A stretch of 64,000 nucleotides of DNA from Escherichia coli O127:H6 str. E2348/69 (lineage in GTDB: Bacteria; Pseudomonadota; Gammaproteobacteria; Enterobacterales; Enterobacteriaceae), in the NCBI RefSeq assembly GCF_000026545.1, contig NC_011601.1; one strand, given 5' to 3'. The stretch's first letter is position 1; every line of letters starts with the position of its first letter. The notes under the pieces are model-generated. The model saw only the letters and a list, made by a program, of their open reading frames with translations. It ran no database searches and was not told where the DNA came from. Positions 11,570 through 12,635 of this stretch are shown in pieces. The position numbers were made by a program, and so were the translations under genes.

Positions 11570-12635
11570 ATGAATATTAAGCGTATTGGTCTCGATCTTG
11601 CAAAAACGTTTTTCAGATCCACGGCGTTGATCACCATGAAAAAGTGGTACTGCGAAAAAGGCTGCGCCGTCCCCACATGATGACGTTTTTCTCCGGGCTT
11701 TCTCCCTGCCTCATCGGCATCGAAGCCTGTGGCTCTTCTCATTACTGGGCCCGCGAGCTCACCCGTATGGGCCATACCGTGCGCATTATTCCACCGAAAC
11801 TTGTCAAACCTTATCTCAAAGGTAACAAAAACGACGCCAATGATACAGCCGCCATCTGTGGGGCCATCAGCAGGCCCGGCATGCGATTTGTTGCCCTCAA
11901 ATCGGAAGCCCAGCAGACGCTGCAGGCAGAGCACCGGGTCCGGGTCCGGGTCCGGGTCCGGGTCCGGGTCCGGGTCCGGGTCCGGGTCCGGGTCCGGGTC
12001 CGGGTCCGGGTCCGGGTCCGGGTCCGGGTCCGGGTCCGGGCAAGAATCATCCGCGAGCGAACGGCACTGTGCAATGAAATCCGGGGGCTGTTAAGTGAGT
12101 TTGGTCTGGTGCTGCCCGTGGGGATAAGGCATGTGCGTAAAATCCTGCCGGAAATCCTGTCACAACAGGAGCAGTGGAATGACCGCTTCATCCGTTTGTT
12201 GTGCGAACTGTCAGAGGAAATGCAGATGCTAGATGAACGCATATCGCGTTATGACCGCCGTCCTCATGAGGCTGCAAGGGATGATATCCGTATTAAACGG
12301 CTGATGGAAATAGAGAGTTTTGGCCCGATAGTAGCGAGCGCTTTGTAGCCGCCGTAGGGGATGCGAAGCAATTTAAAAACGGGTGGGAAATGTCAGCCTT
12401 TATTGGGCTGGTTCCGCGACAGCATTCCAGCGGCGGAAAAGAGCGGTTGGGTCATATAAGCAAACGGGGCGACAGTTACCAGAGAACGCTGATAATCCAC
12501 GGTCCCCCCGCAGTACTGAGATTCAGCGCCGGAAAAACAGACAGGCGCAGTCGCTGGCTACAGTCGGTGGCAGAAAGACGCAATAACAATATTGCCGTGG
12601 TGGCGCTGGCAAATAAAAACATCAGGATAGCGTAG
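11570..12635 (+). pseudogene. IS110-family (DEDD N-domain plus Transposase_20 C-domain) transposase pseudogene
   Basis: MNIKRIGLDLAK... then a frame change at the A5 run 11602-11606; IGIEACGSSHYWARE... in ORF 11644..12348; second frame change near 12340; C-terminal GLVPRQHSSGGKERLGHISKRGD in ORF 12390..12635. Confidence 0.7.
11934..12040. repeat. Perfect hexanucleotide tandem repeat (CCGGGT)n, about 18 units
   Basis: Directly visible at 11934-12040; in frame within the transposase pseudogene, read as (RV)n; reverse frame gives (TR)n. Confidence 0.95.

Follow-up and report, generated by a model that had tools for sequence, protein, structure and literature searches.

What is a long, perfect hexanucleotide repeat doing inside a transposase gene of E. 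coli O127:H6 str. E2348/69, and does its length change? We analyzed a stretch of 64,000 nucleotides of this genome (NC_011601.1; hereafter, the window), whose + strand carries a perfect (CCGGGT)17.83 tract at 11934-12040. Direct reading of the sequence, Tandem Repeats Finder, and a regular-expression search agree on this array, in line with the original prediction of about 18 perfect CCGGGT units at 11934-12040. Tandem Repeats Finder, run on the 64-kb window, reports an array of period 6 with 17.8 copies and 100% matches, that is, the head-to-tail short-unit arrangement of a VNTR or microsatellite, and scores it at 214, the second-best tandem array of the whole window scoring 45. The regular expression returns 107 bp of exact CCGGGT units, the last of which is partial (CCGGG). 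A perfect periodic tract of 107 bp cannot have arisen by chance within 64 kb. In the transposase frame it translates as EH(RV)17RARII; the repeat had been placed in frame within an IS110-family transposase pseudogene, and both the (RV)17 translation and the RefSeq label of the gene ("IS110 family transposase, frameshifted") bear this out. The CCGGGT unit itself is unremarkable and not unique to the E. coli tract, since a scan of one genome per species for (CCGGGT)5 found arrays of 5-20 copies at no fewer than 120 loci in other species; among the 80 matches listed, nearly all lie in high-GC actinomycetes, other high-GC bacteria, and haloarchaea, and none in an enterobacterium.

The gene that hosts the tract is dead. 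It runs on the + strand from an ATG at 11570 to the ancestral TAA stop at 12684-12686 (11570-12686), and its lesions were read against an intact 340-aa copy, P0162, which lies between yaaX and yaaA in E. coli CP057808 and is 94-95% identical. A run of five A residues at 11602-11606 is 1 bp shorter than in the intact copy, a lesion common to all alleles examined; a second 1-bp deletion falls at approximately 12341-12342, because of which every called ORF ends in ...GPIVASAL; and a premature TAG stop at 12633-12635 replaces the TGG (Trp) codon of intact copies. At least two frameshifts had been predicted, and the comparison with the intact copy gives two frameshifts plus a stop, so that with two 1-bp deletions and a TGG-to-TAG change this is no longer an intact, potentially active transposase gene. 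The longest surviving ORF (11644-12348, 234 aa) spans the tract and lacks the first ~25-35 residues, with the region of the first catalytic Asp, as well as the whole Transposase_20 domain. In other assemblies, the surviving ORF is called as proteins of 190-210 aa that step by 2 aa.

Once repaired, the protein matches PF01548 (DEDD_Tnp_IS110) over residues 6-145 (E = 2.8e-13) and PF02371 (Transposase_20) over residues 211-288 (E = 2.3e-19), and it thus has the N-terminal DEDD/RuvC-like and C-terminal Transposase_20 domains of the IS110 family. By these Pfam matches, the repeat site corresponds to residues 122-126, inside the C-terminal part of the DEDD_Tnp_IS110 match and upstream of Transposase_20, and not strictly in a linker of the transposase, as had been supposed.

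How did this gene come to be here? Its left chromosomal neighbor is kgtP (alpha-ketoglutarate permease; 9934-11232, - strand) and its right neighbor the 5S rRNA gene at the end of an rrn operon (rrfG of rrnG; 13057-13172, - strand). In Nissle 1917 and an O7:H15 strain, which lack the element, the match to the window stops at ~11444/11482 and resumes at ~12965. The sequences that flank the gap, GTAGGCC (11483-11489) and GGATAAG (12966-12972), read as the left and right halves of an interrupted target: joined, they make a REP-like sequence, which we take to be a REP. Independent insertions of related elements end in ...GTCCATATAYGG, followed by REP-like sequence of the GGATAAG type. From the empty-site alignments and these shared ends we therefore place the whole inserted IS110-family element at approximately 11490-12965 on the + strand, a length of ~1476 bp in E2348/69 that would be ~1380 bp with the native 1.83-copy seed described below. 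These junctions suggest that insertion by this IS110-family element is sequence-specific and targeted to REPs. Junctions of ...GTCCATATAYGG with GGATAAG-type sequence were seen in E. coli, Salmonella bongori, Leclercia, and one further contig.

The element also has a 279-bp 3' non-coding part (12687-12965, + strand) that is strongly conserved among 7 homologues with protein identities as low as 63%, and in its predicted consensus structure 17 of 71 pairs show compensatory changes. Within this part lies an invariant GAGGCCGGATATACGAA, in which GGCCGGATA (12890-12898) matches the REP target, GTAGGCC joined to GGATAAG; the same target is also matched by CTTATCC at 12795-12801. An Rfam scan of 11200-13300 returned only the 5S rRNA and one snoRNA match at chance level (E = 0.32). 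Its conservation and predicted fold make this segment a candidate guide RNA, and it is probably the bridge RNA of the element, located 3' of the gene. It is separate from the repeat phenomenon.

The element is reminiscent of the IS110-family RNA-guided recombinases IS621 and ISCro4, to which it is only distantly related: the repaired protein likewise combines DEDD_Tnp_IS110 and Transposase_20, the insertion lies in a REP-like target, and the non-coding end is conserved and predicted to be structured. A sequence search of the PDB gave weak matches to 9t56 (ISCro4) and 8wt6 (IS621), with E values of 1e-5 to 1e-7, that cover the C-terminal domain only, so that the tract site is not mappable onto either structure. 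The long non-coding region of IS621 sits 5' of its gene, whereas that of the window element is 3'. The window copy also differs in being a pseudogene, and no relative carries a repeat expansion.

The tract itself has a visible origin in the unexpanded relatives. At the corresponding site, the intact E. coli copy reads CAC CGG GTC CGG GCC, which amounts to 1.83 units and encodes HRVRA. The intact relatives P0001, P0032, and P0162 (94-95% identity) read AEHRVRAR, as do others down to ~75% identity, and for P0001, P0162, and further intact relatives the motif extends to AEHRVRARII. P0002 reads AEHRGRAR, and relatives at 63% identity have R-I-R-S/N. A pseudogene adjacent to ugpB, 87% identical to the window copy, carries CCGGGTCCGGGCC at the site and is also unexpanded; matches at 80-90% identity occur in ~527 genomes, and those listed are of this ugpB type, with equal match length. 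More broadly, all 128 full-length homologues with an identifiable site have a single motif of the type R[VI]R[AST]R, and runs of two or more RV are confined to the pseudogene cluster of the kgtP locus among the 172 homologues fetched. The suggestion that relatives hold a single RV(R) motif, and that a cgggtccgg seed is native, therefore stands. Because the intact relatives and the 128 full-length homologues keep only the seed, the sequences indicate that expansion is specific to the dead copy at the kgtP locus.

Two further observations concern these relatives. In NZ_CP013025.1, the 87% identity of the ugpB-adjacent copy is limited to window positions 11483-12308 and the sequences diverge sharply beyond, so that either this copy or the window copy may be a mosaic. 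The element between yaaX and yaaA in CP057808.1, with its 340-aa transposase 94-95% identical to the window protein, is apparently intact, and many stand-alone contigs of ~1.4 kb are found in read-level assemblies, which suggests active, multi-copy relatives in Enterobacteriaceae.

Does the length of the tract vary? The orthologous copy is present in 7 of 5,426 complete E. coli genomes and thus absent from more than 99% of them. Each of the seven carries a perfect tract: 6.83 copies in Z1323HEC0067, 7.83 in DCE7, 8.83 in Z1323HEC0423, 9.83 in A25, 17.83 in LT827011 (E2348/69) and in its engineered derivative LT903847, whose allele may not be independent, and 18.83 in CP059840.2, which is also E2348/69. 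Over window positions 11400-12900 (a 1.5-kb query), NZ_LT827011.1 is 100% identical to the window. The protein cluster P0121, with 27 members from NCBI, ENA, and Logan (draft and metagenome assemblies, among them strains DEC1E, DEC2C, and 2362-75), has 1-5 RV units and adds the alleles of 1.83 to 5.83 copies. The locus thus has eleven alleles, of 1.83, 2.83, 3.83, 4.83, 5.83, 6.83, 7.83, 8.83, 9.83, 17.83, and 18.83 copies, those of 3.83 and 4.83 being known as proteins only and the others as DNA. No DNA copy examined departs from a perfect tract, and all allele differences are multiples of 6 bp. The locus is the same throughout: the contigs with 2.83 and 5.83 copies share the pssA-yfiM-kgtP context, the short metagenome scaffolds with 1.83 copies hold the kgtP-side intergenic flank and the 5S gene, and all DNA copies checked for context sit at the kgtP-rrfG site. 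This is copy-number polymorphism in whole units at an orthologous locus, as in a VNTR; a tract fixed and invariant across related genomes is refuted by the comparison of orthologous copies, whose lengths differ.

That the long tract was mis-assembled or artificially lengthened, an option that the original prediction had left standing, has next to no probability in our judgment. Assemblies are error-prone at tandem repeats, and the two complete E2348/69 assemblies, NZ_LT827011.1 and NZ_CP059840.2, have identical 3.1-kb flanks and lie one unit apart, a gap that might stem from an erroneous consensus in either assembly. However, a perfect tract occupies the same site in seven complete genomes from at least five independent strains and laboratories, and shorter perfect alleles recur in numerous draft and metagenome assemblies. 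Because tracts of up to 35 bp assemble only from reads that span both flanks, the short alleles are real. The differences are all exact multiples of 6 bp. We therefore reject the artefact. The assemblies do bias the allele spectrum: long alleles are under-represented because draft contigs break at the repeat, which is why alleles of 6.83 copies and above come from finished genomes only and why some called proteins (P0151) start right after it. No allele between 9.83 and 17.83 copies occurs in the assemblies sampled. In NZ_CP059840.2 (18.83 copies), RefSeq divides the pseudogene into two fragments that flank the repeat.

The flanking sequence gives a measure of how fast these changes occur. Once the tract is taken out, the loci with 2.83, 5.83, 17.83, and 18.83 copies align over 3.1 kb of flank with zero differences; a second flank haplotype carries 5.83, 7.83, and 9.83 copies, and a third, divergent one carries 6.83 and 8.83. 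Within the ORF, three SNP haplotypes can be told apart (R/C in DE[R/C]ISRYD and R/K in RA[R/K]II), each with at least three repeat alleles. Because identical 3.1-kb flanks carry from 2.83 to 18.83 copies, the tract alters its length far more quickly than point substitutions build up, and it does so recurrently on one haplotype, which is the behavior of a VNTR. With eleven alleles from 1.83 to 18.83 copies at one locus, several of them on identical flanks, the proposal of a hypermutable locus and strain marker is well founded. Both frameshifts are present in all alleles, the 1.83-copy allele included; expansion therefore arose, or at least diversified, in an already-dead gene. As a separate observation, the pseudogene, lesions included, is shared by two human isolates from Korea, Z1323HEC0423 and Z1323HEC0067, and ~35 sites of their flanks differ from the E2348/69 type in the 3.1-kb alignment. 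Their divergent flanks may reflect either an old insertion or a recombined region.

In our view, the tract is very probably a hexanucleotide VNTR, neutral and lineage-restricted, which gains and loses units by slipped-strand mispairing. In the series of events that we propose, an ancestor of the E2348/69-like strains would have received an IS110-family element in a REP located between kgtP and rrfG. Two frameshifts and a stop would have inactivated this element, and its native CCGGGTCCGGG (1.83 units, HRVRA) would then have acquired units. Whole 6-bp units would now be gained and lost as strands slip and mispair during replication, a mechanism to which we are led by an allele series that climbs one unit at a time, without a gap, from 1.83 to 9.83 copies, the perfect homogeneity of the alleles, and the one-unit difference between the E2348/69 assemblies. 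Slippage would probably be aided by folding of the tract, through hairpins on both strands and a G3-N3 quadruplex motif on the + strand. The rate of slippage increases with copy number. Methyl-directed (MutS) mismatch repair of E. coli acts on loops only up to ~4 nt and handles larger ones poorly, so slippage intermediates of 6 nt should escape repair, and their loops would probably evade the MutS-dependent pathway. With an inactive host gene and a unit divisible by three, changes in length would drift freely, with no known consequence.

The same VNTR might instead change by RecA-dependent unequal sister-chromatid exchange or gene conversion, or by rare template switching in large steps, which we hold to be distinctly improbable. 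The jump from at most 9.83 copies to 17.83-18.83, with no intermediates seen, would fit such a process, and at 107-113 bp the longest alleles are above the minimum commonly cited for pairing by RecA. Yet the missing intermediates may be unsampled or lost at contig breaks, the ladder from 1.83 to 9.83 copies climbs in single units without a break, and the E2348/69 assemblies are exactly one unit apart. Efficient RecA pairing also needs more than ~30 bp, and tracts below this length are too short for it.

Replication slippage in a neutral VNTR remains our preferred reading, and the predicted folding of the tract bears on how it would proceed. When folded as single-stranded DNA, both strands form long CCGG:CCGG hairpins, of -37.9 and -37.0 kcal/mol (z = -3.3 and -4.2), whose predicted stability rises linearly with copy number. 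These values give no asymmetry between the strands (-37.9 vs -37.0 kcal/mol), which are separated only by the G-quadruplex option: the + strand has 18 runs of G3 with 3-nt TCC loops, a canonical G-quadruplex motif, and when quadruplexes are allowed its minimum becomes four tandem G-quadruplexes at -54.7 kcal/mol, the minus strand remaining a hairpin (ViennaRNA; energies approximate). The GC skew of the + strand is negative across the whole window, and the G-rich strand would therefore have nascent lagging-strand sequence.

These predictions allow a stronger role for structure, which we think unlikely. The tract could be a structure-driven expandable repeat in which the G-rich strand, with its lagging-strand sequence, folds into G-quadruplexes or G·T-containing hairpins and so biases changes toward multi-unit expansions. 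The jump from at most 10 to 18-19 units in E2348/69 could, with a similarly small chance, exemplify such an expansion. Were this so, the tract would be a tractable E. coli model for hexanucleotide expansion of the C9orf72 kind, and a folded tract might interfere with replication immediately beyond the heavily transcribed rrnG operon.

Could the repeat be functional? A selected repeat could be a contingency locus, a length-tuned (RV)n stretch in a truncated but expressed protein, or a DNA or RNA structure that affects kgtP, rrnG termination, or replication. The 234-aa ORF through the tract is still open, the tract is structure-prone with a G-quadruplex motif on one strand, and its position is just downstream of an rRNA operon whose transcription is very high. 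All the same, we regard selection for function as very improbable: the surviving ORF has neither the N-terminal catalytic region nor Transposase_20, the gene lesions are common to all alleles, ~700 bp separate the tract from the start codon of kgtP and ~1 kb separates it from the 5S gene, alleles that range from 1.83 to 18.83 copies are mixed on shared haplotypes with no pattern, and more than 99% of complete E. coli genomes do without the locus. No function is indicated for the tract. The contingency (phase-variable) option in particular was rejected, as a 6-bp unit always stays in frame and never alters the reading frame, and the host gene holds two frameshifts and a stop.

Seen as a neutral VNTR, the tract offers a marker of high resolution, which can be sized by PCR, for E2348/69-like E. 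coli, and it may even tell apart laboratory stocks of the reference EPEC strain E2348/69 (17.83 vs 18.83 units). It is also a place where short-read assemblies break or mis-size. One dead gene that displays every count from 1.83 to 9.83, together with 17.83 and 18.83, beside functional relatives that remain unexpanded, offers a view of the birth of a microsatellite after constraint is lost. Current understanding of repeat instability and of IS110 elements is left unchanged by it. Our literature searches returned no description of the kgtP-rrfG CCGGGT locus.

Among known systems, the human C9orf72 repeat, (GGGGCC)n, resembles the tract in its G-rich 6-bp unit, in the G-quadruplex motif of the G-rich strand, and in hairpins on the strands, which are predicted here, and in both cases longer alleles are expected to be less stable. 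The analogy is one of mechanism only, as the window tract is bacterial and tiny (at most 19 units), with a predicted structure and no known phenotype. The contingency loci of Haemophilus, Neisseria, and Campylobacter likewise consist of short tandem repeats in coding sequence that change length by slipped-strand mispairing, but their units are not multiples of three, or lie in promoters, and switch a functional gene, whereas the window unit is 6 bp long and its gene is dead.

The closest likeness is with the 6-bp loci used in E. coli MLVA, such as CVN014 and those of the O157:H7 schemes: perfect or near-perfect units vary in whole numbers among close relatives, change outpaces point mutation, and the loci serve as strain markers. 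CVN014, a hexanucleotide locus, ranges from ~2 to 11 units within ST131 and has been scored in ST131, ST648, ST38, and others (PMC3407997). The possibility that the tract is CVN014 itself was rejected, since CVN014 occurs in lineages that lack the insertion and the tract locus is present in 7 of 5,426 complete genomes: CVN014 spans E. coli lineages, whereas the window tract is found only with the IS110-family pseudogene between kgtP and rrfG. It further differs from the MLVA loci in having been born inside a mobile-element pseudogene, from a seed of 1.83 copies. We conclude from the compared sequences that the tract behaves as known hexanucleotide VNTRs do, at a different, lineage-restricted locus.
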